From the IMG/VR virus record IMGVR_UViG_3300046469_000011, positions 1 through 64,000 of that record: a stretch of DNA of 64,000 nt; one strand, 5' to 3'. The notes below the pieces were generated by a model. It made no database searches, was not told the origin of the DNA, and saw only the letters and a program-made list of their open reading frames with translations. This DNA is from a virus (lineage: Duplodnaviria > Caudoviricetes). This document shows positions 4,349 to 45,713 of the stretch, piece after piece (positions within the stretch are counted from its first letter, which is position 1; each line of letters starts with the position of its first letter). The translations under genes were made by a program, and so were the position numbers.

Positions 4349-4358
4349 AGGAGAAATA

Positions 4359-4708: not shown

Positions 4709-4992
4709 GAAGCAATCTGGTCGGAAAAACAGTCGCGCTGACGCTGTGCAAGGCGTGGGACGTGCGAGGCAATCAAACAGAGATTTCGGGACTATGGGAA
4801 GTCGAGGATTGGGATTGCATCGAGCGCGGAGGTCCATTCTTCATTCTGTACGACCCGAGTGGCCCGGACAGTGAGGAAAATTCCGTCACAGTCGATGAGT
4901 ACGACCTGATCGAACAAGTCGATCCTCACGCTTATGGGCGAATTCTCGAACAAGAGCGCATGATGGATTTCATGGAGGAAAGCAATGATTGA
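4705..4992 (+). CDS. hypothetical protein
   Basis: ATGA overlap with upstream ORF. Confidence 0.65.
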   Translation: MRSNLVGKTVALTLCKAWDVRGNQTEISGLWEVEDWDCIERGGPFFILYDPSGPDSEENSVTVDEYDLIEQVDPHAYGRILEQERMMDFMEESND

Positions 4993-8277: not shown

Positions 8278-8288
8278 GGAGGAATAAT

Positions 8289-8495
8289 ATGTGTCAAAAC
8301 TGCTACTACCGGGAAATGCGTGAGTCGCAGGAGCAGGCCCGCGTCATCATCAAGGAGCATTTCGAGTCAATCGGAGTTCCCGAGGATTCCATCGTGTTCA
8401 AGATGGCCGAGTTGCAGATCGCCTGCAACCTGAATCCCGAGTTGATGAGCGAAGTCGTGCGGCTCTATCCCGACCCGATTGCGCTACGGTCGTGA
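8289..8495 (+). CDS. hypothetical protein
   Basis: AAGGAGG SD. Confidence 0.65.
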   Translation: MCQNCYYREMRESQEQARVIIKEHFESIGVPEDSIVFKMAELQIACNLNPELMSEVVRLYPDPIALRS

Positions 8496-8681
8496 AGCAC
8501 TACACAATTTTCCCCATGTGGGGAGACAGGAGCGGGGATGTTCTCTATGAGGGCATCTTCCGCTCATCCAGCGATAGCGGATTTCGCGATGACGTAGCCA
8601 ACGCGATCCACGAAGCACAACACGCTGAGGCTGACCGAATCGAAATCGTCATCGATCTGGACTAACGAAAGGAGAAATAAC

Positions 8682-10223
8682 ATGAACGAATGGACGCATG
8701 ACGAGCTTTCTGACGCCGATCTGGAATTTCTGAATCAGATCGAGGAAAGCTTCAACGACTCCGAGCCGGAGGGTCCACCGCCCGAGGAATTCGACGCTGC
8801 TGCGTTCGGCGAGGCTTCCGACGCTGCTGGCGGTGTGGCCCAAGGAGAGTCCGACGAGAAATCTGACGAGCGAGCCGACCGTCCCGAAGAGGGTGGCGAG
8901 AGCGGCGAGTCCGATCAGGTGAACGAGTCGGAAATGGATATCTCCCAGGCCGAAACCGAGCCTCAGCAGGAGTCATCCGACAAGGCCGACGAAAAGGATC
9001 ATCTGGAATCGGGCGACACCGACTCGGAAATTCAAGAGGGCGAAGACGATCTGGAATACGACGATCTGGAAAGCCAGGAGGCACCCAGCGCCGACGCCGA
9101 CAAGGATTTCCAGGGCGATGCTCAGCAGGAGCTTGAGGATCACCTTGAGAATTCCGAGCAGGAGTCCGAGCAGGAGCCGGATCAGCCCCAGACGAGCGAT
9201 CACCTGCCGGATAAAAAGCCGCAATGCCACGACCATTGCGAAGACACCGAGCCGGATGAGGGCGACGAGGTTTGCGAGCGTTGCCAGCAGCGGATCGAGG
9301 AAGAGCGCCAGCAATGGGGAGCTATCGCCAAGGATATGAACGGCGTGGACATTCTCCCCGGCGACAAGCTCATTGTCCGGGTTCCATTTTCATTCATGCA
9401 TGTGGGAGCGGTTCTGACCGCCAACGTGCCGAATCTGGAAATCAACCGGGTGGCCGAGCGCACCAACGGCGAGCGCGACGAGTCGAAGCTGTGGCTGTCG
9501 GGCAAGCAGATCAGCCAATTCACCGGCTGGCATATGGTGGACGATGGGCCGATCTGGGTCTTCGACCAGGGCGCTGAGCTTCATTTCTTGGAGCGCATGG
9601 GTACGCCTCCGCGTGATGGTGCAGGACAGAGGGATATCGAGCAGGAGGTCGAAGAATTCCGCCAGGAAATGGAGGAATACGAGAAGCAGGCCGAGCAGCC
9701 TCAGCCCGATCCCGAGCCGGAGCCAGAGCAGAAAGAGCCGGAAGAACCGAAGCGGATGCGTGTCGGTGATATGGAAGTCGGCGACCTTTTTGCCGTAGAC
9801 GCTCCGGGGGAGTTTGATATCTCGTGGCGCATCACCAAGAAATTTGCCCACATGGTTAGCCATGAAATTCATTGGCGAAGCGACGGTGGAGAAATCGACA
9901 AGCCCGGAACATCCTCAAACGACTTCATGGCTTACAAAGTCGGCCACGTCGATGATGAAGAAAAGGATGAGCCGAAGCCTCCGGAGCCGAAGGAGACTCC
10001 CTCTGACGAGAAGCTGACCAAGGCTCAGCACAACAGGTTCGACAACCTGAACGAGCGGATCACGAGGAAAATTCAAGAGACGTTCGGATCGACCGCCGAG
10101 AAGGTGGAGATTGTCGAGGCCAAGCACACCGAGTCAATGGCGACCGCGATGGTGCAGATCACCAGTCGCGGGGCTGTCTACTCATGCGTAATGTCCGTCA
10201 AGCGTGAAAAGGAGGATTCGTGA
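8682..10223 (+). CDS. large, very acidic, largely disordered hypothetical protein (513 aa)
   Basis: AAAGGAG SD; D/E/Q/S-rich N-terminal 200 aa, Cys/His cluster, PEP linkers. Confidence 0.8.
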   Translation: MNEWTHDELSDADLEFLNQIEESFNDSEPEGPPPEEFDAAAFGEASDAAGGVAQGESDEKSDERADRPEEGGESGESDQVNESEMDISQAETEPQQESSDKADEKDHLESGDTDSEIQEGEDDLEYDDLESQEAPSADADKDFQGDAQQELEDHLENSEQESEQEPDQPQTSDHLPDKKPQCHDHCEDTEPDEGDEVCERCQQRIEEERQQWGAIAKDMNGVDILPGDKLIVRVPFSFMHVGAVLTANVPNLEINRVAERTNGERDESKLWLSGKQISQFTGWHMVDDGPIWVFDQGAELHFLERMGTPPRDGAGQRDIEQEVEEFRQEMEEYEKQAEQPQPDPEPEPEQKEPEEPKRMRVGDMEVGDLFAVDAPGEFDISWRITKKFAHMVSHEIHWRSDGGEIDKPGTSSNDFMAYKVGHVDDEEKDEPKPPEPKETPSDEKLTKAQHNRFDNLNERITRKIQETFGSTAEKVEIVEAKHTESMATAMVQITSRGAVYSCVMSVKREKEDS

Positions 10224-26841: not shown

Positions 26842-27094
26842 TGGACACTTCCGAATGAAATTCTTTTATGTGCGTTTCGTGGTCTTCCCAATCGTAAATA
26901 GCGCGTTCGCCATAAACGACTTCAAGCTCGTTTCCTTCGGCATCGCGGCGCAGCACGAATTTCGCATTTTCGTCTGGCTCGTGAGTAACCAAAACTTGAT
27001 TGGCGACCCCACAAGCAGGGCAAATCGCAAAATGCCTGCCCTCATCGTCCACTATGAGCCGAGGGGGAAGTTCGTGTAGGGGTGTTCTTGGCAT
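26834..27094 (-). CDS. hypothetical protein with CPAC motif
   Basis: Tiles in operon. Confidence 0.6.
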   Translation of the reverse strand: MPRTPLHELPPRLIVDDEGRHFAICPACGVANQVLVTHEPDENAKFVLRRDAEGNELEVVYGERAIYDWEDHETHIKEFHSEVSNA

Positions 27095-27119
27095 TTCAAA
27101 ATTTCTTCTGACAACAAGC

Positions 27120-27151
27120 AGCCCGACGCCAGATATTCCCAGCGTCGGGCT
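27120..27151 (-). terminator. hairpin/terminator after the 308-aa gene
   Basis: AGCCCGACGC/GCGTCGGGCT inverted repeat; weak U tract. Confidence 0.6.
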
Positions 27152-27167
27152 AACTTGCAGTCAATCA

Positions 27168-28094
27168 CTAACCGGCTGTGACCGTCTCCGTGACCGTGAC
27201 GTTATCGCCTGAGGTCGTCAGAGTCGCCGTGGCGTTCAAGAGCGTCTCATAGGCCATCGTGCCTGAAGAGGACGCATTGAAAACGCCGATTTTCGCAATG
27301 GTGACCGGCAGAGAATCCGACCCGTTGGCCGTAAACGTCTTGGTCAGCGTGGTCGTATTCGTGCCCGCCGTATGGGCATAGGTCGCCTGTGCCCGGAGCA
27401 GACCGCCACCGACTGTCGTGATCTCGCCCGAGAGGGTGGTATCAGCAGCGGCAGGGGTGGTCGAGTTCGCCGTCAACGCGATGTAGTTGAACGACGCTGG
27501 CTGAGCCGATGTGGAAAGGTGCTGAGCATGGAGAGCATCCCGGCCACCCGTGGTCAGAAGTGCGGTCGGCTGACCTTCCGCGCATCCGAAATGGGCTGCA
27601 ATGGCTCGCCGTAGATCAGCGATATCGGACTCGACCCATGCGGGCTTCCCGGAGCCGGAGTGAACAGCAACAATCTGTTCAATTTCCGACACCGCAACAG
27701 CCCACTTTTTGAGGGACGGATCAATGTTTTCCAGATTCTTCGCGATGAGCGTAAGCATCCGGTCGTTGTCCGTGGAAAGCGTGTGGTTGACGAATTCCTC
27801 GTTGACAGAATCCGGATTGAATTCCACGCGCGTCACAGACTGCTTGAGGTGCTGTGCAGGAACGCTCACCCGAGGACCATCGGGTTGCTCGACCTGCATC
27901 ATCGGCGCATCGTTCCCCAGAAGAACAATTGCGCCAGGAGGCTTGGCTGTCTCATCCCCATCCGCCACGGGGATATAGCCCAGCGCCTCGTTTTTCAAAT
28001 CGCCCGACTGAACCTGCGACTGAGCAGGCTGGGAGGGTGCTTCGACCTGCTGAGCCTGGGAATCCGGCGTGGGAGTTGGATCTTCAACTGCCAT
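27168..28094 (-). CDS. putative major fibre subunit (tail-collar/fibre N-domain-like C-terminus); paralog of 37991..38749
   Basis: LTTGGRD..FNYIALT..DTTLSGEI..IGVFNASSSGT..GDNVTVT; AGGAG SD and downstream hairpin. Confidence 0.7.
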   Translation of the reverse strand: MAVEDPTPTPDSQAQQVEAPSQPAQSQVQSGDLKNEALGYIPVADGDETAKPPGAIVLLGNDAPMMQVEQPDGPRVSVPAQHLKQSVTRVEFNPDSVNEEFVNHTLSTDNDRMLTLIAKNLENIDPSLKKWAVAVSEIEQIVAVHSGSGKPAWVESDIADLRRAIAAHFGCAEGQPTALLTTGGRDALHAQHLSTSAQPASFNYIALTANSTTPAAADTTLSGEITTVGGGLLRAQATYAHTAGTNTTTLTKTFTANGSDSLPVTIAKIGVFNASSSGTMAYETLLNATATLTTSGDNVTVTETVTAG

Positions 28095-28157
28095 TTTTCT
28101 CCTATCTGAGAATTTTCTCGGTGGCCCGCGATTTTTCTACAGACCACCGAGAGGATT

Positions 28158-28568
28158 TCACGGAACTGCGAAGTACGGAACTTCGCTTTCGAATGGAAGC
28201 CCCATAGTCGCGCCCATCTGACCAGCGCCACCCATTCCGATGCTCGGGGTGCGACGACGCTCGCGGTAGAAGGCGTACTCGGGGTTGGTGATGTGGACGG
28301 CCCCGCGACCGCGAAGGCCACCGGGGAACTGAGAGCCACCTGCACCACCTAGCTCGTCCTGGGAGAGACGTGGAGCCACGTAGAGCAGATTCGTGCCCGG
28401 AATCGGCGTACCGATCTGAGGCAGAGGGGAGGTCCCCAACGTGCCCGGAGCCGAAAGGCCCTTGGCCGAGAAAACGCGAATGTTGTTGGTTTCGCTGCCA
28501 GGCCGTTGGGCCACAATTTGACCAGTGGCCCAAGGCATTCCCCGGCGAGTTGCATCTCTTACTGCCAT
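28158..28568 (-). CDS. Pro/Gly-rich hypothetical protein
   Basis: AGGAGG SD. Confidence 0.7.
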   Translation of the reverse strand: MAVRDATRRGMPWATGQIVAQRPGSETNNIRVFSAKGLSAPGTLGTSPLPQIGTPIPGTNLLYVAPRLSQDELGGAGGSQFPGGLRGRGAVHITNPEYAFYRERRRTPSIGMGGAGQMGATMGLPFESEVPYFAVP

Positions 28569-28585
28569 GCTTTTCCTCCTGTTGA

Positions 28586-28957
28586 TTATCCAGACCCGCC
28601 GTTGGCCTGGGCCGATTGAATAGTCTGTTGCCGGAGCTTCTCATTACGAGAATTCCAAGGCTCAAACCCAGCACCGGGAATTTCTCCCTGATACTGAATT
28701 CCTGGCTGCTTGGGGCCATTTGGTGTCGTCCCAAGATTTCCGGTGTCAGCGTGCATGTCCCGAGGGATGGGGTATACATAGCGGGGCTGTCCCGGTTTCC
28801 CGTCTCTGGTGTATTTGTCAGAGCCATAGGGAGCCTGGGCCAGATTAGCGTTGGTCGTTGGCAGGTTCGTCAACGGCGAGACGCCAGGAAAATCCCGCTG
28901 ACCGGGGCTGGTGGGGTGTCCCCGATACTGAGCTACCTGAGAAGGGCTAAGCGCCAT
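28586..28957 (-). CDS. Pro/Gly/Gln-rich hypothetical protein
   Basis: Tiles between the basic array and the 28158 gene. Confidence 0.7.
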   Translation of the reverse strand: MALSPSQVAQYRGHPTSPGQRDFPGVSPLTNLPTTNANLAQAPYGSDKYTRDGKPGQPRYVYPIPRDMHADTGNLGTTPNGPKQPGIQYQGEIPGAGFEPWNSRNEKLRQQTIQSAQANGGSG

Positions 28958-28980
28958 AAAAAATCACCGTAAGCCTAAGT

Positions 28981-29307
28981 CTACCGTTTCCGTCCCGCGC
29001 GTCCGCGAGATGATGAAGAAGCTCGGCCACGACCACCTTTCGCGGAAATCCCACGGGCGGGGCCGGAGAGCGCGACGATCTTTTGAACAGAAGCCACACC
29101 GCGACGGCTAGCTGCTCTAGACTTAGAGCCACGCCCTGCCGGTAGGGGAGTGGAGGACATCGGAGGCCCCTGACCCGGCAGAAGCGTGGCCGCTGAGACA
29201 GGATCGACCGTGTAGCTCGCCAGGGCATTGCGAGCATCACTCACGGGCGCTTTTCCCTTATGGGTTCCCTGCCGCAGACTGGAATTCTTCGCTTTACGAC
29301 TTGCCAT
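28981..29307 (-). CDS. basic protamine-like protein 15 (108 aa, MASRKAKNSS...)
   Basis: R/K/S/G-rich; TGATG coupling. Confidence 0.75.
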   Translation of the reverse strand: MASRKAKNSSLRQGTHKGKAPVSDARNALASYTVDPVSAATLLPGQGPPMSSTPLPAGRGSKSRAASRRGVASVQKIVALSGPARGISAKGGRGRASSSSRGRAGRKR

Positions 29308-29765
29308 CAGAAAGCCTTGTCGTAGACCCTTCTAATCGGGAGAACGTGATACAGACGGGGCGGATGCGGATTCAGAGCGCGAGGACGATGAATTTCCGTT
29401 CCGGTACGGCTCTTGACCGACCTGTTGACTGAATTCGCCTTTGGGGCGCTACGGCCAGCACGAATCACCGTGTTCCCGGCCCGAGTGGGCTGGCGAGCCT
29501 TCATCGTGGCCGGAGCCTGGCCGGATTTCGGATTGGATTTCGCTGCGCGGCCCTTGTGGGTATAGCGCTTCAATTCCTTGGTCGTGCGCTTGCCGACCAC
29601 CCGCTCTTCCTTGCGCCGACGACGAGCGCGATTTCTCCGGGCACGGCGAGGTGTTTCCATCGTCGAGCGCCGAAGATCATCACGCAGCGGCCTGACAATC
29701 AAATAATGCTCGCCAGGGAATTTATGCGTAAGCCGAGAAAGTGAATGACTGTGATGACGTGCCAT
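29307..29765 (-). CDS. basic protein 14 (152 aa, MARHHSHS...)
   Basis: Poly-Arg tract; TAATG coupling. Confidence 0.75.
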   Translation of the reverse strand: MARHHSHSLSRLTHKFPGEHYLIVRPLRDDLRRSTMETPRRARRNRARRRRKEERVVGKRTTKELKRYTHKGRAAKSNPKSGQAPATMKARQPTRAGNTVIRAGRSAPKANSVNRSVKSRTGTEIHRPRALNPHPPRLYHVLPIRRVYDKAF

Positions 29766-29923
29766 TATCGAGTGCCTTTCGGCTTGGTTTCTTTCGGGCC
29801 AAGACCAGGGCGCTTGTGCTTCATGGAAGTCGGAAGCCTGTCTGGATTGGTTTTTTTACGAGCAGTCAGAAGAGATCCGGGATCTCCATGCTTCACGGCA
29901 GGAATTATCGTTACGCGGGCCAT
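29765..29923 (-). CDS. basic protein 13 (52 aa, MARVTIIP...RPGLGPKE), not in ORF track
   Basis: TAATG overlaps on both ends. Confidence 0.7.
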   Translation of the reverse strand: MARVTIIPAVKHGDPGSLLTARKKTNPDRLPTSMKHKRPGLGPKETKPKGTR

Positions 29924-30231
29924 TACCAATGCCGAGGATGCACAGTTTTATAGAATTCCAGCGTACTCAACGACATCCTTCCACCGGGAAGCCGCTTCCG
30001 CTCAGGCATCGTGACCTTCGTGCTGCCCTTATAGACCCGATGGCCCTTCCTGGACACCTTGAACCCCAAGGGCGACAGAGACTTGTGAAGCTGGTGGGGA
30101 CTGATCCCTTGCCGACGTGCCTTCCTCACTATCGCTGAATGCTGAGGAACAGTCGGCCTCATCGCCTTGGCCGCTGGTGGAAAGCGATGAATGCTCGTCG
30201 AGCGTCCTTGCTTACGCTTGACCATCGCCAT
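29923..30231 (-). CDS. basic protein 12 (102 aa)
   Basis: R/K/H-rich; TAATG coupling. Confidence 0.75.
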   Translation of the reverse strand: MAMVKRKQGRSTSIHRFPPAAKAMRPTVPQHSAIVRKARRQGISPHQLHKSLSPLGFKVSRKGHRVYKGSTKVTMPERKRLPGGRMSLSTLEFYKTVHPRHW

Positions 30232-30449
30232 TAGATTTTCCTCAACCTCGGCTTATCCCGCACCGGAGCGCGTCCCTTATGGGCACCAAGCTTCAGGTGA
30301 TGACTCGTAGCACCACCCAGGCCATGATGAGTCCTGGCTGGAAATCCACGGCTGGACATAACCCGCAGATCATTGATCTTGGGTTTCATGCTGTACGCCT
30401 GAATCTGAGCGCGTCGCCTCGATCCAAGCCCTCTACGACCAATTCGCAT
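30231..30449 (-). CDS. basic protein 11 (72 aa)
   Basis: R-rich; HKGRAPV motif. Confidence 0.7.
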   Translation of the reverse strand: MRIGRRGLGSRRRAQIQAYSMKPKINDLRVMSSRGFPARTHHGLGGATSHHLKLGAHKGRAPVRDKPRLRKI

Positions 30450-30454
30450 TCAGA

Positions 30455-30643
30455 TCACCCGGCAGGCCAGTGTGGCTCCGGCCCATGCGGGGTCGGAGAA
30501 ATTGACGAAAGTGCAGCAGCGGTCAGTCGTGCATCGCCGCGAATACCCGTGCAGCGAATTCCGCCCGGATGATTCACCACGACGCCCTTGCCCTGTCCGC
30601 GCCGCTTACCGCGACCGCGCTTTGCTGATTTTCTACGTGCCAT
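30455..30643 (-). CDS. basic protein 10 (62 aa, MARRKSAKRGRGKRR...)
   Basis: AGGAG SD. Confidence 0.7.
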   Translation of the reverse strand: MARRKSAKRGRGKRRGQGKGVVVNHPGGIRCTGIRGDARLTAAALSSISPTPHGPEPHWPAG

Positions 30644-30651
30644 TTCTTCTC

Positions 30652-30816
30652 CTAGATTTTGAATCCTCTACGCCTCATGTCTGCCCTTGTAGAAGGGTGG
30701 AGCTTCGGCGCAGCACCTAGTTTTTTCCAATCCCCAGAAGTCATGCGAACGCCTAAAGATTGAGTTGGATTTGTCCTCATATGGTGAGGACTCGGGACTG
30801 TCGCATGTCTAGCCAT
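30652..30816 (-). CDS. basic protein 9 (54 aa, MARHATVP...PTQSLGV), not in ORF track
   Basis: ATG overlaps upstream stop; shares motif with 31117..31314. Confidence 0.7.
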   Translation of the reverse strand: MARHATVPSPHHMRTNPTQSLGVRMTSGDWKKLGAAPKLHPSTRADMRRRGFKI

Positions 30817-31117
30817 TGATTTTTGATTTCAGAGAGCGGGCCTTGCGACCAATTTTGGTCTGCCCGCGACGCTTGATTTTCGTCTTGGTCGGCTTCCACT
30901 CTTTCGGGTGATAAGTCTTTGTGACGGCATCAACCGCGCTACGGCGGGTGGGGAATGTGCCGACCATTTTGTAGCCGCCGTTGATGCGCTTGAAAGCATG
31001 GTGGACCTTGGGACCAGGAGATTCCACGCGACCAATTTCGTGTCCGCGCAGGTGAACCTCATGCGGGCCATAGCCGCCGTGAGTGAAAACCGTTGCTCCG
31101 CCATGCTTAGAAGCCAT
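30809..31117 (-). CDS. basic protein 8 (102 aa)
   Basis: K/R/H-rich; TGATG coupling. Confidence 0.75.
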   Translation of the reverse strand: MASKHGGATVFTHGGYGPHEVHLRGHEIGRVESPGPKVHHAFKRINGGYKMVGTFPTRRSAVDAVTKTYHPKEWKPTKTKIKRRGQTKIGRKARSLKSKING

Positions 31118-31314
31118 CAGACACCAAGAGATTGCGTTGGATGAGTGCGCTTCCGCGTCCGGGGCTTTCTGAATTTCCCCGCTGCGTGATCATCGTGGAA
31201 TTTCAAGATGGGATCTACTCCATCGCTGATCTTGCGCGTCCGGCCATAACCAGGAAGAAGACGCTTCCTTGAATTATCACCAGTGGTATTCACAATTCGA
31301 CGAGTACGTGCCAT
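31117..31314 (-). CDS. basic protein 7 (65 aa)
   Basis: TGATG coupling on both ends. Confidence 0.75.
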   Translation of the reverse strand: MARTRRIVNTTGDNSRKRLLPGYGRTRKISDGVDPILKFHDDHAAGKFRKPRTRKRTHPTQSLGV

Positions 31315-31646
31315 CAGCGCACCTTTGACCTATGGCCCTTGGGGGGTGTATAGGCCCGCAGAGAATCGGGAACTCCCATTTTCTTTGGGCGCGGCGTAAG
31401 CCTGGCACCCGTGCCAGCGTGGAAAGTCCCTGTATGGTCGTGGAGCGTGTGAGCGCCACGCATCGAACCGATGAACGGCTCGTGATTTGGCCGAACACCC
31501 TTCGGTCCCAAAGTTTGATTGCGAGTCTTTCGGGGAGCTTTGGGAGTGGGAATTCCTTTACCCTTGCTTCCAGTCTTCACTGATGCGCCTATGCGAAGGC
31601 TCTGTTTCTTATTACGGCGACGAAGCTGACGATTAGTAAGGGCCAT
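31314..31646 (-). CDS. basic protein 6 (110 aa)
   Basis: AAGGAG SD; TGATG coupling. Confidence 0.75.
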   Translation of the reverse strand: MALTNRQLRRRNKKQSLRIGASVKTGSKGKGIPTPKAPRKTRNQTLGPKGVRPNHEPFIGSMRGAHTLHDHTGTFHAGTGARLTPRPKKMGVPDSLRAYTPPKGHRSKVR

Positions 31647-31816
31647 CAGCGCTTTCTCCTTCTCCGGCGAGAACGAATCGGTGAAATCACAACTTCGTTC
31701 CCTTGAGCGCCAAAGGAATGAACCGTGTTGATCTCGGGAGCGACCTTATTCGAGACGGTGTAAATATGAGGACGAACGCCCATTGAGTCAGTGAGATGTC
31801 TACGCTTACCGTGCAT
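31646..31816 (-). CDS. basic protein 5 (56 aa, MHGKRR...RSRRRRRKR), not in ORF track
   Basis: TGATG overlaps on both ends. Confidence 0.7.
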   Translation of the reverse strand: MHGKRRHLTDSMGVRPHIYTVSNKVAPEINTVHSFGAQGNEVVISPIRSRRRRRKR

Positions 31817-32202
31817 CACATTTTCTTCGACCTTCTGCCACCGCGAGGACGAAAGCCCGTCTTCTTGCGGTTGCGAGGGGATTCTCCTGGCTTGGACTGA
31901 TCGACCCGAATAACCGCTTTGGGCTTGCGAGAAATTATGTGTTCCTCGGGGCCAAGACCGGGGCGCTGAGCGTGATCGTGAGCCGGAGGACGGTCAATAT
32001 TTGATCCGCCTGTCGGCTTGGCAACGCCCTTGATGCCCCGCATGACGTTTTTCTGCTTGCGCGAAGTGCGCCAAGTGCCCGGAGAAGGACGGCGAGGACC
32101 GCCATATGGCTCCTTGGGAGTCGAACCAGGGATGTTCCGACCCGCATTCCCCTTCAAGCCGGGAACGCGAGGACCCTTCGCCTGGGATTTCCGCCGTGCC
32201 AT
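31816..32202 (-). CDS. basic protein 4 (128 aa, MARRKSQ...)
   Basis: TAGATG junction; R/K/P/G-rich. Confidence 0.75.
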   Translation of the reverse strand: MARRKSQAKGPRVPGLKGNAGRNIPGSTPKEPYGGPRRPSPGTWRTSRKQKNVMRGIKGVAKPTGGSNIDRPPAHDHAQRPGLGPEEHIISRKPKAVIRVDQSKPGESPRNRKKTGFRPRGGRRSKKM

Positions 32203-32433
32203 CTACTTCTTCTTTCGGGCAGGAGATTTTTTGGCCGCAGCCGAGTCCTTGCGGCGAGCCGCGTGCTTGGAAAAAGCATGGGCCTGCTTGTCGGTCATTC
32301 CCTTACGCTTCAATTTGTTGTAGATCGTCTTCTGGGAATCCGACATGGAAACCCCGGCAGAGGGCTTTTTCGCTGTCGCCGGGGAGGAATTCTTGGCCTT
32401 GCGAGCCGTAGATTTGGGTTTGCGTGTGGTCAT
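32203..32433 (-). CDS. basic protein 3 (76 aa, K/A-rich, histone H1-like composition)
   Basis: AAGGG SD; AKKSPARKKK tail. Confidence 0.75.
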   Translation of the reverse strand: MTTRKPKSTARKAKNSSPATAKKPSAGVSMSDSQKTIYNKLKRKGMTDKQAHAFSKHAARRKDSAAAKKSPARKKK

Positions 32434-32451
32434 ATCCCTTGTAGAATCCGG

Positions 32452-32496
32452 TCCCGACCCCGGAGGGGAGTCGCCAAACTACCTCCGAGGCCGGGA
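32452..32496 (-). promoter_or_regulatory. intergenic RNA hairpin with UUGGCG loop
   Basis: 15-bp stem that pairs fully (with G-U) on the - strand, capped by AGU-UUGGCG-ACU. Confidence 0.65.
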
Positions 32497-32517
32497 ATCC
32501 GAACTCTTCATCCGCTC

Positions 32518-32721
32518 CTAGAGAGCGTCCGCGCGACGGCGGCCACGACGATGCCCGCCATGACGACGCCGACCCAGGCCGGGGTGACGGCGGACGTGGG
32601 CACGAACCCGCGTCCGGCGACCCGTGGCCGTGATCCGGGTATGCGACCGCACCCGATGATGCGTGGGATGCGGATGCCGCCCGTGACGACGACGGCGGTG
32701 TCCAACACGACGACGAGCCAT
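32518..32721 (-). CDS. basic protein 2 (67 aa, R/H-rich, protamine-like)
   Basis: AAGGAGG SD; MARRRVGHRRRRHGRH... Confidence 0.75.
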   Translation of the reverse strand: MARRRVGHRRRRHGRHPHPTHHRVRSHTRITATGRRTRVRAHVRRHPGLGRRRHGGHRRGRRRADAL

Positions 32722-32757
32722 GTGTGGATCATCCTCCTTGGTTGTTTGCAATTCCGT

Positions 32758-33081
32758 TCATCGCCTACGGGGATTCCTCCGGCGATGCGCCCTCACCCGG
32801 ACCCTCCTGCCAGTAGACGTGATGCGCGTGTGCCCGGAGACACGGTGCGTACCCCGCTTCGAGGCAGAACGGCGGCGGGTGGACGTAGACCTGGACCGAC
32901 TCGAACTACCCAGAGGCTTCCATCCTCGACGCGCCATGCGGGCAAAATTCGCTTGGGCACGGGTTCGGGGATTTTTGCTCCGAAGACCCTGCGAAACCGA
33001 AATGCCCTTTCTGGTGAAAGCGCCTCGGTGAGCCGGGTTTATGTTGATGCCTGATCGAGATCTGCGTCTGCGACGAGCCAT
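32758..33081 (-). CDS. basic protein 1 (107 aa, MARRRRRSRS...)
   Basis: Arg/Ser-rich; INPAHRGAFT...ANFAR motif. Confidence 0.75.
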   Translation of the reverse strand: MARRRRRSRSGININPAHRGAFTRKGISVSQGLRSKNPRTRAQANFARMARRGWKPLGSSSRSRSTSTRRRSASKRGTHRVSGHTRITSTGRRVRVRAHRRRNPRRR

Positions 33082-33141
33082 TCGGTTCCCGTGGGATTTG
33101 AACGGATGTCAGGCCGCTTTTGCTGACCCCTTACACGGATA

Positions 33142-33168
33142 ACTATAGCCGTTTTGGGCAGATGTCAA
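33142..33168 (-). promoter_or_regulatory. possible promoter of the basic-protein operon
   Basis: TTGACA ... TATAGT on the - strand, but the spacer is only 15 nt. Confidence 0.35.
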
Positions 33169-33211
33169 GCACTTCTGTAGGCGGCTCTGTAGACGGCCCA
33201 CTTTTGCGGCT

Positions 33212-33625
33212 CTAGTCTTCGTCTCGCAAAAGCCCAGGAAGCCTGGATCTACGGCGTTTTTGCTCACCCTTGGTGGGTACGATGTAGCGGCTCTGCTCCG
33301 ACTCCAAAATTCGCACGAAATCTGAGGCTCTACAGACCACTACTGTCTCGGTCCCACCATCCAGGGCTATAGCTATAGCGGGTATGGAATTATCACCATT
33401 CTCGCGTATTGCATTATCAGCCTCACGTAGCAATTCTTTAGATATTGAATGGCTCTCTTTCTCCGTCCACTTGCAGGAGAAGGTGAAGGTGCCATCGCCT
33501 ACGTCAAGCTTGGCGTACCAGACGTTCCCAGAGCCTTTCTGCGGCTCTACACCGAACAGAGCGGCCCAGAACCGCTCGAACCTGCGCCCTGATTTTTGCG
33601 GGGACTCTCCGGGGCGCTTTCGCAT
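33212..33625 (-). CDS. PD-(D/E)XK Holliday-junction-resolvase-like nuclease
   Basis: GRRFER...GSG....KLDV....SCK pattern (the usual ExK Glu is Ser here). Confidence 0.6.
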   Translation of the reverse strand: MRKRPGESPQKSGRRFERFWAALFGVEPQKGSGNVWYAKLDVGDGTFTFSCKWTEKESHSISKELLREADNAIRENGDNSIPAIAIALDGGTETVVVCRASDFVRILESEQSRYIVPTKGEQKRRRSRLPGLLRDED

Positions 33626-33637
33626 TCTAGGATCATA

Positions 33638-35470
33638 TCATGGTTGGGGAACTTTGCCTGAAGTCCAGCCGCCAGCCGGTGCAGCAACAAATTTTGAATT
33701 GGCTATAGATGCGGCGAAAGCAGATTGCGAAGCGGATGAGCTTTCAATAGCGAAGGTGTCAGTGGCCCCCGAGCCGTCCGTGTAGGAACCATTGTTGTTG
33801 TTGTACCAAAGAGCCGCTTTGATCTGCGGGAAAGTCTTATTAGCGATTTGAGCAAAAGTATCGGTAATCCATGAAGCCTTCCCGCTAGACCCATACGAAT
33901 CTTCACTGGCAAACTCGCAAATCACAATTGGCTTATTGGGCGAGAGAGACGCAAATCCGTTCATCGAATGGGTATAGAGATTGACGAACGACTCGCTGGT
34001 GGACCCGGTGTTGTAGCCATCGATCCCCAGCCAATCCACATAAGCATCGCCTGGATACCAGGGGGTCGGATCAACCGACACGGTGCCTGAGCCAGTCCAA
34101 ATATTAGGACACCAGACCCAGGTGATATTTGTCGCTCCTTGAGCATCACAGCGACTCTTGAATCTTTGCCACGCCGCCACATATTGTGCTGCCGTGGTGC
34201 CGTACTCTGTTTGCCACGTATATCCCGAGGACGTGCCCCAATTTCCGTTCATTTCCCAGCACCAACGGAACATGAATGGCTTGCCCCAGGAGGCAACCTG
34301 TTGCGCCCAGGCATCAATTTGAGAATCCCAGGAACCAGCGGCAATCGAGGCCATAGTCGCGCCTCCCTCCAAGCCGCTCGTCATCAAGCAAAAAGCGCCC
34401 CGAGAAAAGGCATGATCCATTGGAGAGCTACTCCACGTCACAAAATTTTCATGAACGGCGATAGCTGCGACTCTCTTGCCTGCGTGCGACTCGAACAAAT
34501 TCCAAGTAGCATCATCTGGTGTTCCGGGCCAAGGCGGATTTGCATACCCAGCATTTGTGCCGCCGTAGACAGACCCGAGAATGCTGGCACCCCAATAAAT
34601 GCGCGTAGTGGCGACAAGGCTCGTATCGGTTGCCGCATCGTGAACAGACACGCTATCCGAGGCAGATAGATGATAAATCCTAATTCCGCCCGAGAACGCG
34701 ACTGAATCAAAAACAGAAACCCGGTCGGAAGCGGACATGGAGAAACTGTTGATTCCTCCCGATCCAGTTCTTGTGACTGAATCGAAAACTGACACCGAAT
34801 CCAACGCGCCAACGAAAGAACTACCTGTTCCGCCGCCAGTAGTGCCGCCACCCGTCCCACCTGTGCCTCCCGAACCACCCCCGGTGCCTCCTGGACCGCC
34901 CTCAATGCCTCCACCTGACGTGGGGCCTCCGGTAACGCTGGTGCCCACACCCTGGCCGCTCTGCCAAAGCTTCTCTCCGTATACACCATCTTCTAGGCCC
35001 CACTGACCGTAGGCCGGTGGCTTAGAGGTGTAACGCGGCCAAAGCTGGCCGTAGGGGACCAGCAAAGTGGGATCAAAAATAAACGGAGATCCCCAGCCGA
35101 TGGGCCAGAGTTGCCCGTAGCGGGCATTCGAGACAGCTACATCGATTCCAAGCTGGAAAAGCTTGGCTGTTGAAAATTCTGCGCCAGCGACATCAATGCC
35201 GAATTGAAAAACAAAGGCGCGAGAAAGCCCTGTTGACGAACCAGCATCACCGAACGGAATTGAATCGTATGCAGCAAAGAATACGGGTCCAGGCTGAGCG
35301 GAATCGGAAATTGCAAGATCATCGCTTGCATAAAGGTGCGCTGCAATAGCATCGTAAATTGCGATGGAATCAGCAGCCGTCCTTGAATAACTGACTGGCC
35401 CTCCGGGTGCCGAAGTTTCTCCGCCACCATAAGGAGAGCCACCATAAGGACGTGATCCGTAACCGGCCAC
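33638..35470 (-). CDS. virion-associated protein with SD-repeat stalk, Gly linker and C-terminal GH26 glycoside hydrolase
   Basis: FRWCWEMNGNW, WYPGDAYVDWLGIDGYN, KPIVICEF; ASDSVSVxD repeats. Confidence 0.8.
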   Translation of the reverse strand: MAGYGSRPYGGSPYGGGETSAPGGPVSYSRTAADSIAIYDAIAAHLYASDDLAISDSAQPGPVFFAAYDSIPFGDAGSSTGLSRAFVFQFGIDVAGAEFSTAKLFQLGIDVAVSNARYGQLWPIGWGSPFIFDPTLLVPYGQLWPRYTSKPPAYGQWGLEDGVYGEKLWQSGQGVGTSVTGGPTSGGGIEGGPGGTGGGSGGTGGTGGGTTGGGTGSSFVGALDSVSVFDSVTRTGSGGINSFSMSASDRVSVFDSVAFSGGIRIYHLSASDSVSVHDAATDTSLVATTRIYWGASILGSVYGGTNAGYANPPWPGTPDDATWNLFESHAGKRVAAIAVHENFVTWSSSPMDHAFSRGAFCLMTSGLEGGATMASIAAGSWDSQIDAWAQQVASWGKPFMFRWCWEMNGNWGTSSGYTWQTEYGTTAAQYVAAWQRFKSRCDAQGATNITWVWCPNIWTGSGTVSVDPTPWYPGDAYVDWLGIDGYNTGSTSESFVNLYTHSMNGFASLSPNKPIVICEFASEDSYGSSGKASWITDTFAQIANKTFPQIKAALWYNNNNGSYTDGSGATDTFAIESSSASQSAFAASIANSKFVAAPAGGWTSGKVPQP

Positions 35471-41265: not shown

Positions 41266-41929
41266 TTTTCTCCTTTGAGTCGATATACACGTTGATTATG
41301 GGCTGGGGGATTCTCTTCATAACCTCTGAAACGAGTTCAATCGTCTCGTCGAATTCATCGAGATCCCCGTCGTCGAATGTAAGGCCGCCAAATTCTTCAT
41401 CAGAAAATTTGACTTCGGTTTCTGACGCCTGATCCCACATATCGGGATTGGCGCGTGCGCTTAGATAATCGTCTACCCGTGAGGGATCGTGGCCTATGGC
41501 GACCAGACGATGGCGGACGTGTGCAAGATCTTCGCTCCCCATATTTCGTAGCGCACGGCGCATGTAACCGCGTGGTGCTTGTGTACGAACCATACGAGAA
41601 CCGCGAGGCAGCGAACCGTCTCGCCGCATGTGGTGGTCAACGATATCGACGATATCCGCCATTCTTTGCCTTCGAACTGCCTCGTGGAAAGCCGGAACAT
41701 CTACCTGATCGGCATTTCTGGCTCGCGCCCGGAGAAAATGGTGGATGTCGCCTTCTTGCGGGTCATCAAAAGACCTGGCTGCTTCCCTTACAGCGTCATG
41801 GTAGCGGCCCCATTCAGCCGGTCCCGATGTTGAATCAGGCGTGATTATTTCAGGGAGTTCCCTGCGTCCATCGTCAGCTAGGAGGACGGGGAATTCGCCT
41901 TCAAATTCAAGTCGCGGCAAGCGTCTCAC
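41243..41929 (-). CDS. hypothetical protein downstream of portal (start uncertain)
   Basis: Fills the gap between portal and peptidase. Confidence 0.6.
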   Translation of the reverse strand: MRRLPRLEFEGEFPVLLADDGRRELPEIITPDSTSGPAEWGRYHDAVREAARSFDDPQEGDIHHFLRARARNADQVDVPAFHEAVRRQRMADIVDIVDHHMRRDGSLPRGSRMVRTQAPRGYMRRALRNMGSEDLAHVRHRLVAIGHDPSRVDDYLSARANPDMWDQASETEVKFSDEEFGGLTFDDGDLDEFDETIELVSEVMKRIPQPIINVYIDSKEKNENLSSE

Positions 41930-43814
41930 CCACCGCCGCTAGGTACTTCTGCTCTTGTTCGAGGGTGATCGCCTCTGAAAAATAGACCGTATGCTCGTCC
42001 GGATCGAAGCGAGCCAGAATTCCGTTCATCTCGCCGACTCGCTTGATTTTGATCCGGGGCTTGGATTTCCATTCGTCATCGAGTTCACCAGAAAGGAAGA
42101 TCACTTCGCGCGGCTGGATGTAGGTGAATCCTGTGGTCGTATCGCCCGTCGTGCCGCCTGGATCGGTGGCCCCTGGCTCATTGCCTGCCGAAGCAGGGAC
42201 AGTGGCCCCTCCTGCACCCGCAGAAGCTACGCCTACGGTCCCATTGGAGCCGCCTCGGGCCTGGACAGGGTTGGGAGTGGAAGAAGCCTGCTGCTCGGCG
42301 ACCAAACGCGCCTGCTCGGCCTGCTGCTCTTTGATGTCCAGAAGCGGCACGCCAGCGTCATCGAGAATTTTTTGGAGATCCACGAGCGAGATGAGCTTAG
42401 AAATGCCAGTTGGTTGCTGGCCGATTAGCTGAAGCATCTGCTGGGTGAATGCCACATCCTCGTCGGCGAATCCCTGAATTACGATTTGCGCCGTTCCGTT
42501 GCTCTGTAGGAATTCCGGATAATTGACGGCAAGCCATTGCGGGATGACCCATCGGTTGATCGTCTCCTGGATCTGAACCGACATGACGGCCTGGGATTCA
42601 GTGAAAGACGAATCGAGTTCGGCAGCCACATTTCGCGAAGAAGTTCCACCTTTGCCCTCCACCAAGCTCTGCTCGGGAATCCAGAGCGAGCGAATTTTTC
42701 CAATATCGAGGTAGTCGAATGATCTATCGAACGGGTCGAAATTGACCATATCCTTCGTGAAGTCAATCTCCCACTCCCGAACACTGGTGGGGCCATTCGT
42801 GCCTTCATAGGGCGTCGAGGGCAACGTGATGACGCCACCAGAGCGCATCCGATTTCCCATCGCCAGGGCGTAATCGGAGTAGGCCATCGTCTGGCCCGAG
42901 ACGGGATCAGTGAATTCGCCCTCTGGGTGATAGATCAAAATCGAGGGATCAGCCTTCTTTTCAAAGGCGCGGTCTGTGATCGCCCAGCGGAACCAATAGG
43001 ACCACCAGTAGCGATAGGCATATCCCAAGCGCGGATAACCGAAGATCGACCCGAAATTCTGCTCACGCTCGTTGGTCACCCAGAGCGAGTGATAGCGATC
43101 AATGTCAAATTTCTGCTCGTTCTGAGCGCCACCTCCGCCTCCACCACCAGCGGCAGGAGTAGCTCCTACACCGCCAGGAGGCGCACCGTTTGAAGATCCG
43201 TCGTAATTGATGCCGTTGAAAGACCCATCCGGTGCCCAATTCGGCTCGACCGTCTCAGGCGGCAGAGAAACGAACGGCTTCCAGCGGATCGGCTGAATAT
43301 TTCCCTGTGACCAGATAGGCTGTTCAGACATCGTGCCGTCAGGATTTTGGGCCACATAGGTTCCCGAAGGCACTCCCAATTCAAAGCGCTTGGCAATGGC
43401 CTGGAAGCCGAAATCCAAGGAGTTGCACCACTGAAGGACCAGTGAGGCCATGATGCGGCGAAGATCGTGGTCAAGGTGTGCGGCCACCTGGGCATTGGGG
43501 CCGTTGATGTCTTTGGCGTCGATGTACCAGCGAGCGCGAATGTGAGGCGTCTTGATGAAGGACAGGCCAAATCCGATGACCGGATCGCGCCTCATCATCT
43601 TCAGCTTGGAAATCGGGATCTGCTCGACCGAATACGGATCGCCAAGCTGATCCATCGCCTGCCGCCAATTCTGGAAGGCGGCTCGCTGCTGTTGGGAGGG
43701 TGCCTGCTCCTGGTTGCTGCTCACCGATGCTCGGATTGCAGCGGCTTCCTCCGGGGTTACGTCGCCGTTGTTGCCGTTATTCGGGCCTTGCTGCCGGGAG
43801 ACGGTAGTTGCCAT
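41907..43814 (-). CDS. portal protein (DUF935/Mu gp29-like)
   Basis: Follows TerL; MRRDPVI, SLDFGF, FGYPRL..AY, INRWVIP motifs. Confidence 0.8.
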   Translation of the reverse strand: MATTVSRQQGPNNGNNGDVTPEEAAAIRASVSSNQEQAPSQQQRAAFQNWRQAMDQLGDPYSVEQIPISKLKMMRRDPVIGFGLSFIKTPHIRARWYIDAKDINGPNAQVAAHLDHDLRRIMASLVLQWCNSLDFGFQAIAKRFELGVPSGTYVAQNPDGTMSEQPIWSQGNIQPIRWKPFVSLPPETVEPNWAPDGSFNGINYDGSSNGAPPGGVGATPAAGGGGGGGAQNEQKFDIDRYHSLWVTNEREQNFGSIFGYPRLGYAYRYWWSYWFRWAITDRAFEKKADPSILIYHPEGEFTDPVSGQTMAYSDYALAMGNRMRSGGVITLPSTPYEGTNGPTSVREWEIDFTKDMVNFDPFDRSFDYLDIGKIRSLWIPEQSLVEGKGGTSSRNVAAELDSSFTESQAVMSVQIQETINRWVIPQWLAVNYPEFLQSNGTAQIVIQGFADEDVAFTQQMLQLIGQQPTGISKLISLVDLQKILDDAGVPLLDIKEQQAEQARLVAEQQASSTPNPVQARGGSNGTVGVASAGAGGATVPASAGNEPGATDPGGTTGDTTTGFTYIQPREVIFLSGELDDEWKSKPRIKIKRVGEMNGILARFDPDEHTVYFSEAITLEQEQKYLAAVGETLAAT

Positions 43815-45677
43815 TTAGGGACCGGGGTAGCGCACGGGCTGGCCCAGAGATTGACGCCAGCGAGCGAATTCGTCGTTCTGCCCCTGGAATCCTAGCGGTC
43901 CATCGTCTTCTTTACGAATCGAGATCGTGACGCCTGCCTGGCGCTGGGCAGGCTGGGCGACAGGGATATTTGCCGTTGTAGCAGCAGGACGTTTATGTAT
44001 CTTGCGAATATTGGCAGCAGCATATCTAAAATTAGACATACAGTGATTGAATGTATCTATCTGTAGTCCAGTATTAGGATGACGCCGCCACTCTTTCGCC
44101 TCGCGCACCCACATGGGGCATTTGTCTCCGGCTACGAAGAAAAGATCGCTGTCGAACAGGTCGGTGATGACCTTGATGTGTTCCTCGAATTCGCGAGTGA
44201 TGTGCCAGGAGGTCTTCAGGCCGATATTTTTCCAATCCAGCCTCGCTGCCTTGCCCTGTGGATCTGCGAAACGCTCTTGAACTTTCCAGCGCTCGCCCCA
44301 AACGCGGCGATAGGCAGCTTCCTTGAGCTTGACTAGCTGTCCCAGCCGGTCGTTGCCAATCTCGGCCTTGTAAATCTCGTCGAAGCAGATGGTGGCACCT
44401 GCCGGAATACGCATCCTCAACGGCAGGCCAGGCTTCAACACGAAGCAATCCACCTCGATATCAAATTTCAAATATTGATACCAATTGACCGCGTGCGGGT
44501 TCGTGCCGCCCCAATCCACTGAGCAATAGATCGGCCCGTTATCAGGATCAGGGTCGTAGTTCCTGAAGCAATGCTTGGCTTCATCAAATTTCGGGAGATA
44601 GTGGAAGTGCATTTCGGGCCGCAGGCATAGCTGCTGCACCTCGAACGTCTCCCGATCATTTTCCGTGAACTGCTTGATCACGTCTTGGAGCGGCTGCCAC
44701 CCCCGCGACTTGTAGAAGTCCCCTTGGCAGATGTCCCGTAGTAGACGAGGTGAGCCATCTTCCCAATCGCCTTTTCTGATGAGGTGACATTGACATTTCT
44801 CGCCGTCAGACAGAGAAGGATTCGCACACTGACAATTAGGGACTTGTGCAGCAGTTTCTTTGATGCACCACTGATAGAGCTTGCGAGGTGGCTTGAATCC
44901 TGCATTGACCGCATTAATAATTTCGTCGATAAGCTTCTGCATCCGGCCATTCGGACCCTTTCGGGTAGAGGTGCAGATATCTTGAGCCTTGACTACGCGG
45001 CCATCGCTCAAAATTTTGCTGACTGTCATGTTGCGGGACTCTTTCCAAGTCCCGTCGTCCATAAGCTCGATCTCGTCAGCGTGGGCTTTCTGGGGATGCG
45101 GACCATTTACAGCCTGTGGCGTGCCTGGTAGCACCTCCACCTTGGAATTGTTGGAAAAAATAGTCTCGCGGATCATCGAAGCAACGACAGACGATCTCTT
45201 CTCGCCGTTCTCGTCGTAGATCCAGCTTTTTAGATAGGCATAGCAGCGAAGGCCCTGTTGCTCGGTAGCGCCAAAAGTGCATGACTCACAACCTGGCTTG
45301 AAAAGCGAATTCAGCCAATGAAGTATGGCGACGAGAAGCGTCTTAGAGCCACCTCGGTTTGCCATTGCCAAGACAGCATCAACGCGCTCGAAATATAGAT
45401 CAGCGATGAGGGTAAATGGAGCATCATGGTTCTCGCAGACTGAGATTCGCGGGATGTCAATGCCAAGCTCACTTTTTATCCACTCGTGAAGCTCGTCATC
45501 CGTTTGTGGACCGTACTCAGCAAGACGTTTTTCAAGCTCTTGCTGCGCTCGAACCATTTCTTCGAGTTCTTCATCAGAAAGACTGCTCAGAAGTTCAAGC
45601 ATTCCCTCCGGCGTATCCGGAAGCGGCTTGCGCTGTTCTGCTTTTCTGATGAAAGGATTGACTCGGGCAGTCGTCAT
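43815..45677 (-). CDS. terL: terminase large subunit
   Basis: ANRGGSKT Walker A, HADE Walker B, TST coupling motif, VDWG/ADP/NH nuclease motifs. Confidence 0.85.
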   Translation of the reverse strand: MTTARVNPFIRKAEQRKPLPDTPEGMLELLSSLSDEELEEMVRAQQELEKRLAEYGPQTDDELHEWIKSELGIDIPRISVCENHDAPFTLIADLYFERVDAVLAMANRGGSKTLLVAILHWLNSLFKPGCESCTFGATEQQGLRCYAYLKSWIYDENGEKRSSVVASMIRETIFSNNSKVEVLPGTPQAVNGPHPQKAHADEIELMDDGTWKESRNMTVSKILSDGRVVKAQDICTSTRKGPNGRMQKLIDEIINAVNAGFKPPRKLYQWCIKETAAQVPNCQCANPSLSDGEKCQCHLIRKGDWEDGSPRLLRDICQGDFYKSRGWQPLQDVIKQFTENDRETFEVQQLCLRPEMHFHYLPKFDEAKHCFRNYDPDPDNGPIYCSVDWGGTNPHAVNWYQYLKFDIEVDCFVLKPGLPLRMRIPAGATICFDEIYKAEIGNDRLGQLVKLKEAAYRRVWGERWKVQERFADPQGKAARLDWKNIGLKTSWHITREFEEHIKVITDLFDSDLFFVAGDKCPMWVREAKEWRRHPNTGLQIDTFNHCMSNFRYAAANIRKIHKRPAATTANIPVAQPAQRQAGVTISIRKEDDGPLGFQGQNDEFARWRQSLGQPVRYPGP

Positions 45678-45713
45678 CCTGCCTCCCAACGACTGCCCGA
45701 GTCTCCTAAGATC

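Follow-up and report, generated by a model that had tools for sequence, protein, structure and literature searches.

Tailed phages are the textbook packagers of naked DNA, with counter-ions provided by polyamines and metal ions. Among them, phage T4 packages hundreds of copies of the small basic internal proteins IPI, IPII and IPIII and injects them with its DNA; these proteins carry an N-terminal capsid-targeting sequence, which the prohead protease cleaves, and IPI*, at least, is a folded protein. Here we describe, on the minus strand (28981-33081) of the IMG/VR virus record IMGVR_UViG_3300046469_000011, an array of 15 genes whose products are small and strongly basic. The window, that is the whole stretch of DNA analysed, consists of the first 64 kb (64,000 nucleotides) of this 91,877-bp record, which is estimated to be about 90% complete and has a guanine plus cytosine (GC) content of about 57%. 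The likeness to T4 is that of small basic proteins in a tailed phage, whereas the T4 set comprises three proteins and the present one is a coupled row of 15; no similarity to the T4 internal proteins was found when eight array members were searched against PHROGs.

Bacterial ribosomal-protein operons (S10, spc, alpha) are likewise long rows of coupled genes; their products are small, strongly basic and endowed with disordered extensions, the ratios of these products are fixed, and a structured leader serves for autogenous control. The likeness is architectural only, the array having no sequence or fold similarity to ribosomal proteins (no match to their profiles in Pfam or NCBIfam), and an autoregulation of the array along the same lines is a speculation by analogy. 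Proteins VII, V and mu of adenovirus, P6.9 of baculovirus and P64 of ascovirus are described as Arg-rich and as binding the packaged double-stranded DNA genome (PMC6755088, PMC6163548, PMC12159748). These core proteins differ from the array in that they belong to eukaryotic viruses of other lineages, number one to three and are controlled by viral-protease maturation or phosphorylation, and no homology to them was detected in Pfam for ten array members. With 17% Arg, 10% Lys and 5% His, the array proteins also fall short of the Arg content of true protamines, which exceeds 50%. Nothing relevant to arrays of basic proteins in tailed phages was found in the open literature, where basic core proteins appear in eukaryotic viruses only and, among phages, as the T4 internal proteins. 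The array is unusual among virus-encoded basic proteins associated with nucleic acids in its scale, its operon organization and its conservation across a whole lineage.

Organization and nature of the array

The interval is tiled by 15 open reading frames (ORFs) of 52-152 amino acids (aa) each, three short ones being confirmed at 29765-29923, 30652-30816 and 31646-31816 on the minus strand; all had been delimited in a preliminary description of this DNA, and the coordinate check recovered every one. Together, the products comprise 1,313 residues with a summed net charge of +293. They had been described as basic and poor in acidic residues, in agreement with the values computed for each ORF: an isoelectric point (pI) of 11.2-12.0, a net charge of +9 to +36, 20-37% Lys plus Arg, and almost no Asp or Glu. 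Array-wide, Arg, Lys and His account for 16.7%, 9.6% and 5.5% of residues, His reaching only 1.9% in the long genes of the genome, and Asp, Glu, Cys, Trp, Phe and Tyr are depleted with respect to 41 long genes of the same genome. No member of the array in the window contains a hydrophobic segment. The products mostly begin with MAR or MAS, as already remarked in that description (10 of 15), and with MA in 12 cases; over the array proteins of seven phages, 41 of 64 begin with Met-Ala-(Arg/Lys/Ser/His), compared with just 6 of 41 other genes of this genome that begin with Met-Ala.

The coupling through TGATG, TAATG and TAGATG junctions, likewise reported beforehand, is far above chance expectation. 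Nine junctions are 1-nt overlaps (TGATG or TAATG), one is an abutting TAGATG and one an 8-nt overlap, the remaining ones being short gaps of 5 and 8 nt and longer gaps of 36 and 84 nt. ORFs starting with ATG and at least 50 aa long cover 97% of the array strand, with 10 coupled junctions, whereas in 500 simulated sequences (first-order Markov) the coverage averaged 55% (maximum 83%) and the number of coupled junctions 0.5 (maximum 4).

Synonymous codon choice in the annotated frame is that of the long genes of the genome (AAG 0.67 versus 0.70, with CGC and CGT dominant). The synonymous-codon score of the eight conserved members is 0.114 in frame versus -0.032 and 0.030 in the other frames, and that of the seven members without clear homologues is 0.072 versus -0.090 and -0.061; training genes score 0.108. 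A Shine-Dalgarno-like sequence lies upstream of 10 of the 15 starts, as compared with 16% of random sites. Moreover, AGA and AGG make up 42% of the Arg codons within the last eight codons and 15% elsewhere, the basic C-terminal tails thus doubling as the ribosome-binding site of the next gene.

All 15 proteins are predicted to be intrinsically disordered: in a charge-hydropathy plot each of them falls on the disordered side, with nine control proteins of the same genome on the folded side. For gene 1, AlphaFold2 with a family alignment modelled residues 12-55 confidently as a small helical module (predicted local distance difference test, pLDDT, 75-94) and, with moderate confidence, the Arg-rich C-terminal motif common to genes 1 and 2 as a beta hairpin; the gene 14 product was mostly unmodelled, apart from one long Arg-rich helix (mean pLDDT 57). 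In composition the proteins are protamine-like, being small, rich in Arg and Lys, nearly devoid of acidic residues, of pI above 11 and disordered. The label "protamine/histone-like" given to them earlier holds for composition but not for homology: an hmmscan of ten of the 15 members against Pfam-A, with E values up to 1, returned only noise below the curated cut-offs, with no significant match to protamine, histone or HU/IHF-type families, and no array member matched NCBIfam, nor did the eight members searched match any PHROG. The gene 3 family found nothing among PDB sequence profiles, and the gene 1 model found nothing in the PDB below E 3.6 with Foldseek. An ESM Atlas model of gene 8 resembled small actinobacterial "mismatch repair" proteins (template modelling score, TM, 0.57), but was set aside because the model is poor. 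The array proteins also contain short motifs that are conserved and non-basic, and are thus more than generic counter-ions.

Conservation and selection in related phages

Six metagenomic phages from separate samples, with a GC content of 46-58%, carry related arrays: L002 (the same phage as L017, a 90,213-bp contig), L004, L007 (L007-L009), L010, L012 and L013. With gene 14 as the query, 5.8 billion proteins yielded four homologues at 47-55% identity; further ones came from genes 1 and 3 as queries and from an exhaustive run of HMMER, in which the gene 14 profile gave five hits among 1.84 billion representatives. The gene 14 HMMER hit P0008, from a contig with a ubiquitin gene, was judged a low-complexity false positive. 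Gene 3 has thirteen homologues, every one of them from this phage lineage. No match was found for the DNA of 28100-33700 among 50,697 phage records, nor for gene 14 by tblastn against the phage records. Pattern searches of IMG/VR, JGI metagenome contigs and GTDB genomes for the resolvase-like gene next to the array, gene 8, the gene 14 family and the 136-aa flanking protein found none, and hence neither a prophage copy nor a host assignment.

The layout is the same in all relatives: a resolvase-like nuclease gene is followed by 6-11 coupled basic genes, a Pro/Gly-rich protein of 120 aa, a protein of 136-167 aa and fibre genes. The size of the array had been singled out in the preliminary description, and its 15 genes are indeed the largest set of the lineage, but the array is not unique, as its relatives at the same locus show. 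Homologues across loci were detected at E<1e-5 for eight of the 15 genes (1, 2, 3, 6, 10, 13, 14 and 15); the other seven have only short motifs in common, for example THPTQSLGV, INTVHxFG and HKGRAPV, and gain, loss and insertion distinguish the arrays from one another.

Between orthologues, identity at codon positions 1 and 2 is 0.53-0.91, compared with 0.27-0.57 at position 3, which is saturated. The ratio of non-synonymous to synonymous substitution rates (dN/dS, NG86) is 0.05-0.33 in five core families and 0.21-0.67 for gene 15, these values being upper bounds because dS is saturated. For example, gene 1 is 81-83% identical to its L010 and L012 orthologues with a dN/dS of 0.05-0.08, and gene 2 has a dN/dS of 0.12-0.21. 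The preliminary description had reasoned that a lack of homologues, or a dN/dS near 1, would speak against its account; homologues occur in six phages, and dN/dS ranges from 0.05 to 0.67. The ORFs of the array are real genes under purifying selection, with a conserved gene order.

Public gene calls omit members of the array in the related contigs (L002 3143-3704, 4731-4988 and 5757-6131), and the omitted members differ between L002 and L017, which are the same phage. Public gene calling systematically misses such genes, and extremely basic small genes are under-annotated.

Some relatives contain other genes within the array. In L010, a gene resembling AP2-HNH homing endonucleases is inserted among the basic genes (4294-4803). 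Two-helix membrane proteins, small, very hydrophobic and ending in a basic tail, are coded inside or just before the arrays of L010 (3769-3903), L012 (2072-2245) and L004 (2-241), and none is present in the window. The L004 array also includes an acidic 68-aa gene.

The gene 1 module and its relation to virion proteins

The N-terminal half of the gene 1 profile is also matched, among 5.8 billion sequences, by dozens of stand-alone 57-90-aa proteins (E 7.7e-11 to 1e-2). An alignment (A5) of 37 stand-alone proteins, found by a search seeded with gene 1 and its orthologues, defines a basic module of about 55 residues with invariant Ile, Gly, Ala-x-Phe-Ala and Ala positions, of which gene 1 keeps the invariant columns; no Pfam family was found for it. 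The A5 profile matches residues 368-424 of the cargo protein 1 (gp45) of ΦcrAss001 with an E value of 5.8e-12, and the profile of gene 1 alone (A3) matches gp45 with an E value of 0.061. The N-terminus of gene 1 and gp45 have in common the pattern I-x-I-x-P-x-N-x-G-K-F-T ... S-K-N-P-x-T-R-K-R-A-x-F-A-x-N-A. By tblastn, the module was identified in many Crassvirales genomes, within gp45-like proteins, and crAss-like proteins were the top matches of the gene 1 model among viral models (Foldseek, probability 0.99). A second PDB match of A5, to an amidase repeat (E 5e-4), was judged irrelevant.

The gp45 protein was found in ΦcrAss001 virions by mass spectrometry; its segment 425-552 is attached to the portal within the capsid, and another, 214-245, occupies the tail barrel. 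Ejection of gp45 is proposed to proceed from the N- to the C-terminus in an unfolded state (PMC10172136). The segment matched by the module, 368-424, is a stretch unresolved in the cryo-electron microscopy (cryo-EM) maps, immediately before the portal-bound domain.

The module is present in at least 385 IMG/VR loci, 80 of which (L018-L097) were kept. Among these 80, it forms 34 stand-alone genes (59-109 aa) and lies in 28 cases inside proteins of 643-1006 aa. Around 33 distinct stand-alone genes, 66 large neighbours were identified, whose commonest named families are the large terminase, the portal and the major head protein, fibre families being also present. A second small basic ORF lies at most two genes away from 11 of these 33 genes. 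In the unrelated phage L014, a coupled trio of basic genes (8001-8839; 67, 56 and 154 aa, net charge +27, +9 and +22) lies just downstream of the portal gene, the module gene being the first of the three.

Judged from these profile matches, the gene 1 module is homologous to a family of small proteins of head modules and to a segment of a virion-proven cargo protein. The array had earlier been taken to code for internal virion proteins, and the match of the gene 1 module to the head-module family and to gp45 agrees with this for one of its 15 proteins. The likeness to gp45 is that of a basic helical module of about 55 residues, in gene 1 only. It differs in that gp45 is an 842-aa protein with an N-terminal transmembrane helix and a compact portal-bound domain (425-552), whereas the gene 1 product (107 aa) lacks both and has an Arg-rich tail after the module; the other 14 array genes have no counterpart in gp45, and the phage of gp45 is a crass-type podovirus, whereas that of the array is siphovirus-like.

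The genes of the array

All the genes lie on the minus strand and are numbered from the upstream end of the array. Gene 1 (32758-33081; 107 aa, net charge +36) combines the N-terminal helical basic module of about 55 aa with a C-terminal Arg-rich motif, TRITSTGRRVRVRAH, predicted to form a beta hairpin, and has no normal Shine-Dalgarno sequence. Gene 2 (32518-32721; 67 aa, +24) is rich in Arg and His and is a paralogue of the C-terminus of gene 1; its start is most likely the ATG at 32721, which gives 67 aa and is preceded by AAGGAGG, rather than the TTG at 32751. Gene 3 (32203-32433; 76 aa, +21) has a conserved helical core (QKTIYNKLKRKG...) between Lys-rich tails. Gene 4 (31816-32202; 128 aa, +27) has no homologue across loci at E<1e-5, and its in-frame codon usage fits the genome. 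Gene 5 (31646-31816; 56 aa, +10) has the INTVHxFG motif in common with L002 4319-4567, and gene 6 (31314-31646; 110 aa, +23) belongs to a conserved family found at five loci, with the pattern TNRQLRR ... HDHTG ... TGAxLTP.

Gene 7 (31117-31314; 65 aa, +12) ends with THPTQSLGV, a motif also present in gene 9 and in relatives. Gene 8 (30809-31117; 102 aa, +18) is His-rich and scores highest of all members for codon usage in frame, and the weakest member by codon usage is gene 9 (30652-30816; 54 aa, +9), which overlaps gene 8 by 8 nt and carries TNPTQSLGV. Gene 10 (30455-30643; 62 aa, +11), with a conserved C-terminal SPTPHGPEPHWP motif, is present in all relatives. Gene 11 (30231-30449; 72 aa, +17) contains the HKGRAPV motif and is followed by gene 12 (29923-30231; 102 aa, +22) and by gene 13 (29765-29923; 52 aa, +10), which has a KHxRPGLG motif and a homologue at L004 1344-1553. 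Gene 14 (29307-29765; 152 aa, +33) is the best-conserved long member, with THAFPGEHY..RPLRDD, an Arg helix and HRPRALNPH..YHVLPI. Finally, gene 15 (28981-29307; 108 aa, +20) has a conserved VPxSxATLPPGxGPPMSS motif.

Regulatory elements and genomic context

A promoter-like site (CTTGAC, 16 nt, TATAGT) and a leader precede gene 1 (33082-33170, minus strand); the leader contains GGTCAGCAAAAGCGGCCTGAC and then, immediately ahead of the gene start, a small variable hairpin. The region could be aligned between the window, L002, L010, L012 and L013, that is, it is present in all five loci that include the upstream end of the array. The leader element (33082-33137 on the minus strand of the window; L002 3084-3148, L010 2667-2733, L012 909-969 and L013 10015-10081) has an invariant core, GG-x-CAGCAAA-x-GCG, and the word CAGCAAARGCG is found a single time per genome, in this 92-kb phage as in each relative, and always between the promoter-like site and gene 1. 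This element may be a protein-binding operator. The leader also has a weak consensus stem, for which no structured RNA is claimed given that it shows no compensatory changes. Only two other sites close to the consensus TTGAC-N-TAnnnT are present in the 92-kb genome, one at 87545 on the minus strand, upstream of the head-gene block, and one at 62305 on the plus strand, at a region marked as structured RNA in the preliminary description.

A strong GC-rich hairpin lies between genes 2 and 3 (32440-32510, minus strand; -55.2 kcal/mol, z-score -4.7). Hairpins of unrelated sequence occupy the same junction in L002 (3720-3825), L010 (3242-3307), L012 (1495-1520) and L013 (10618-10678), with z-scores of -3.2 to -4.7. 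As no U-tract follows it, the hairpin in the window may be a partial terminator or a stabilizing 3' end through which genes 1 and 2 reach a higher dose. An Rfam scan of 27000-34500 gave no match.

The upstream neighbour of the array is a gene coding for a Holliday-junction-resolvase-like nuclease (33212-33625, minus strand; phrog_2002, E 1.4e-13), at the same position in L002, L010, L012 and L013. Directly after the array comes a Pro/Gly-rich 123-aa protein starting with MALSP (28586-28957, minus strand), 59-69% identical to its copies in L002, L004, L010 and L012, and then a 136-aa protein (28158-28568, minus strand; NNIRVFSAKG..PLPQIGTPIPGT) conserved with 62-76% identity across six loci; neither has a family hit. 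These two Pro/Gly-rich flanking proteins follow the array in every relative, and their identity (59-76%) is above that of the array itself. A fibre-module gene (27168-28094, minus strand), whose equivalent position in L010 holds a gene with a Pfam Gp80 fibre domain, closes the unit, and a terminator-like hairpin with a 15-bp stem after it (27119-27152, minus strand) is the probable end of the transcription unit.

Judged by its gene content, the phage is an uncultivated, siphovirus-like tailed phage. The terminase (43815-45689) and a 635-aa Mu-type portal (41907-43814) are coded on the same strand as the array, upstream of the fibre block that holds it, as is also the case in L013. Co-oriented genes for basic proteins set among virion genes had been announced in the preliminary description, which the terminase, the portal and the flanking fibre genes confirm; the array sits between fibre modules in the window and in every relative. 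Replication genes lie at 49-64 kb, and the rest of the record codes for Dit (66765-67649), a tape measure protein of 2027 aa (69370-75453) and the major head protein (80560-81615, outside the window). There is no close isolate, the portal being about 20% identical to those of Gordonia phages. A paralogy between the portal and another 635-aa protein, which has no family match (82401-84308), was considered and rejected.

Possible roles of the array

We propose, with a probability of roughly 40%, that the array is a late operon of disordered polycations that reside inside the head in association with DNA. The proposal rests on the homology of the module, its genomic neighbourhoods, the composition of the proteins and the local context; the binding of DNA, expression late in infection, entry into the head and any function after ejection are inferred. 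According to this model, the 15 coupled genes would make small disordered polycations, each with one or few conserved short motifs, and the purine-rich Arg and Lys codons at the C-termini, serving as the ribosome-binding site of the next gene, would hold the products at fixed ratios. Produced together with virion parts, the polycations would bind nucleic acid and, as internal ("cargo" or core) proteins, enter the head together with the genome or alongside it. There they would neutralize part of the DNA charge, and they would leave the capsid with the DNA at infection. Genes 1 and 2 are set apart by the conserved hairpin and have the most Arg-rich products, which would therefore outnumber the others.

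Several points weigh against this proposal. The homology link concerns about 55 residues of one of the 15 proteins, and the stretch of gp45 to which it leads is the one unresolved in the cryo-EM maps. With its 2027-aa tape measure, the phage is siphovirus-like in its build, and abundant internal head proteins are atypical of such phages. The array lies outside the head-gene block that includes the major head protein, between fibre modules, and its conserved promoter resembles a host sigma-70 site, so that late timing is not established. Finally, the conserved non-basic motifs argue for specific partners over plain charge neutralization.

Possible, if rather unlikely, is a purely intracellular role, in which the polycations would bind nucleic acids without being packaged: they could coat or compact the replicated phage DNA before packaging, alongside the resolvase-like nuclease, disturb the host nucleoid or ribosomes, or form RNA or DNA condensates at sites of replication or assembly. 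Their composition and disorder fit such a role equally well, and the array, which directly follows the resolvase-like DNA-processing gene in every relative, is equipped with a separate promoter-like site of host type and with a conserved leader that is unique in the genome; this leader might work as an autoregulatory operator, in the manner of ribosomal-protein operons. Signals for capsid targeting or for a protease did not turn up, although no search was aimed at a capsid-targeting sequence or at cleavage. On the other hand, the sole detectable homology is to a module of head-packaging neighbourhoods and of a virion cargo protein, and the array shares its strand and its unit with the virion fibre genes, up to the terminator.

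The proteins could also be packaged and ejected with a main task other than DNA condensation, using short linear motifs aimed at host targets in anti-defence or takeover, as T4 IPI* does. The non-basic motifs differ by member (SPTPHGPEPHWP, VPxSxATLPPGxGPPMSS, THAFPGEHY, THPTQSLGV), the array undergoes rapid gain, loss and shuffling, with seven of the 15 genes lacking a homologue across loci at E<1e-5, and unfolded chains could thread the tail channel. We consider this improbable, as no anti-defence or other family match was found (NCBIfam, Pfam for ten members and PHROG for eight; the PADLOC library was not searched) and the uniformly extreme charge exceeds what the display of motifs needs.

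Still more improbable is a function in the fibre or tail apparatus, as chaperones or glue for acidic Ser/Asp-repeat fibres or as polycations that bind anionic cell-wall polymers at adsorption. It would account for the position of the array between fibre modules in every relative, always followed by the two conserved Pro/Gly-rich proteins and the fibre-module gene (with the Gp80 domain in L010), and for the acidity of the nearby fibre proteins (pI 4-5). The gene 1 module, however, keeps company with terminase, portal and head genes and has a counterpart in an internal cargo protein, even though fibre families are also in the tally; moreover, the proteins have no signal peptides and no fibre-like repeats, and fifteen different partners for a few fibres are hard to explain. 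Lastly, that the ORFs are not genes but chance frames in GC-rich DNA, or the shadow of an opposite-strand gene such as the 263-aa plus-strand ORF at 32263-33054, is refuted for at least eight members and very improbable for the whole, for although public gene callers skip several members in related contigs and a genome GC of about 57% permits long spurious ORFs, coverage and coupling far exceed the Markov simulations, codon usage fits the annotated frame only, the codon-position pattern and dN/dS below 1 hold in relatives at 46-58% GC, and motifs are conserved at the residue level.

Taken furthest, the proposal of packaged polycations would mean that a phage lineage of about 90 kb builds a chromatin-like core, in which up to 15 polycations in fixed ratio coat the packaged genome and enter the cell, the leader acts as a feedback operator, the hairpin sets the dose of the two major species, and the module shared with crAss-like phages marks an overlooked general class of DNA-associated, head-internal proteins; in this full form we regard it as doubtful.

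Significance

Whatever the function of the array, a very common basic module of about 55 residues joins hundreds of uncharacterized mini-proteins of head modules to a crAss cargo protein. Genes of this kind are missed by gene callers, and the operon is furnished with conserved regulatory elements, both RNA and DNA, that lend themselves to direct tests. If the array proteins are packaged, the picture of naked DNA in the head would change for a whole phage lineage, with a bearing on capsid pressure, on the physics of ejection and on the protection of incoming DNA.

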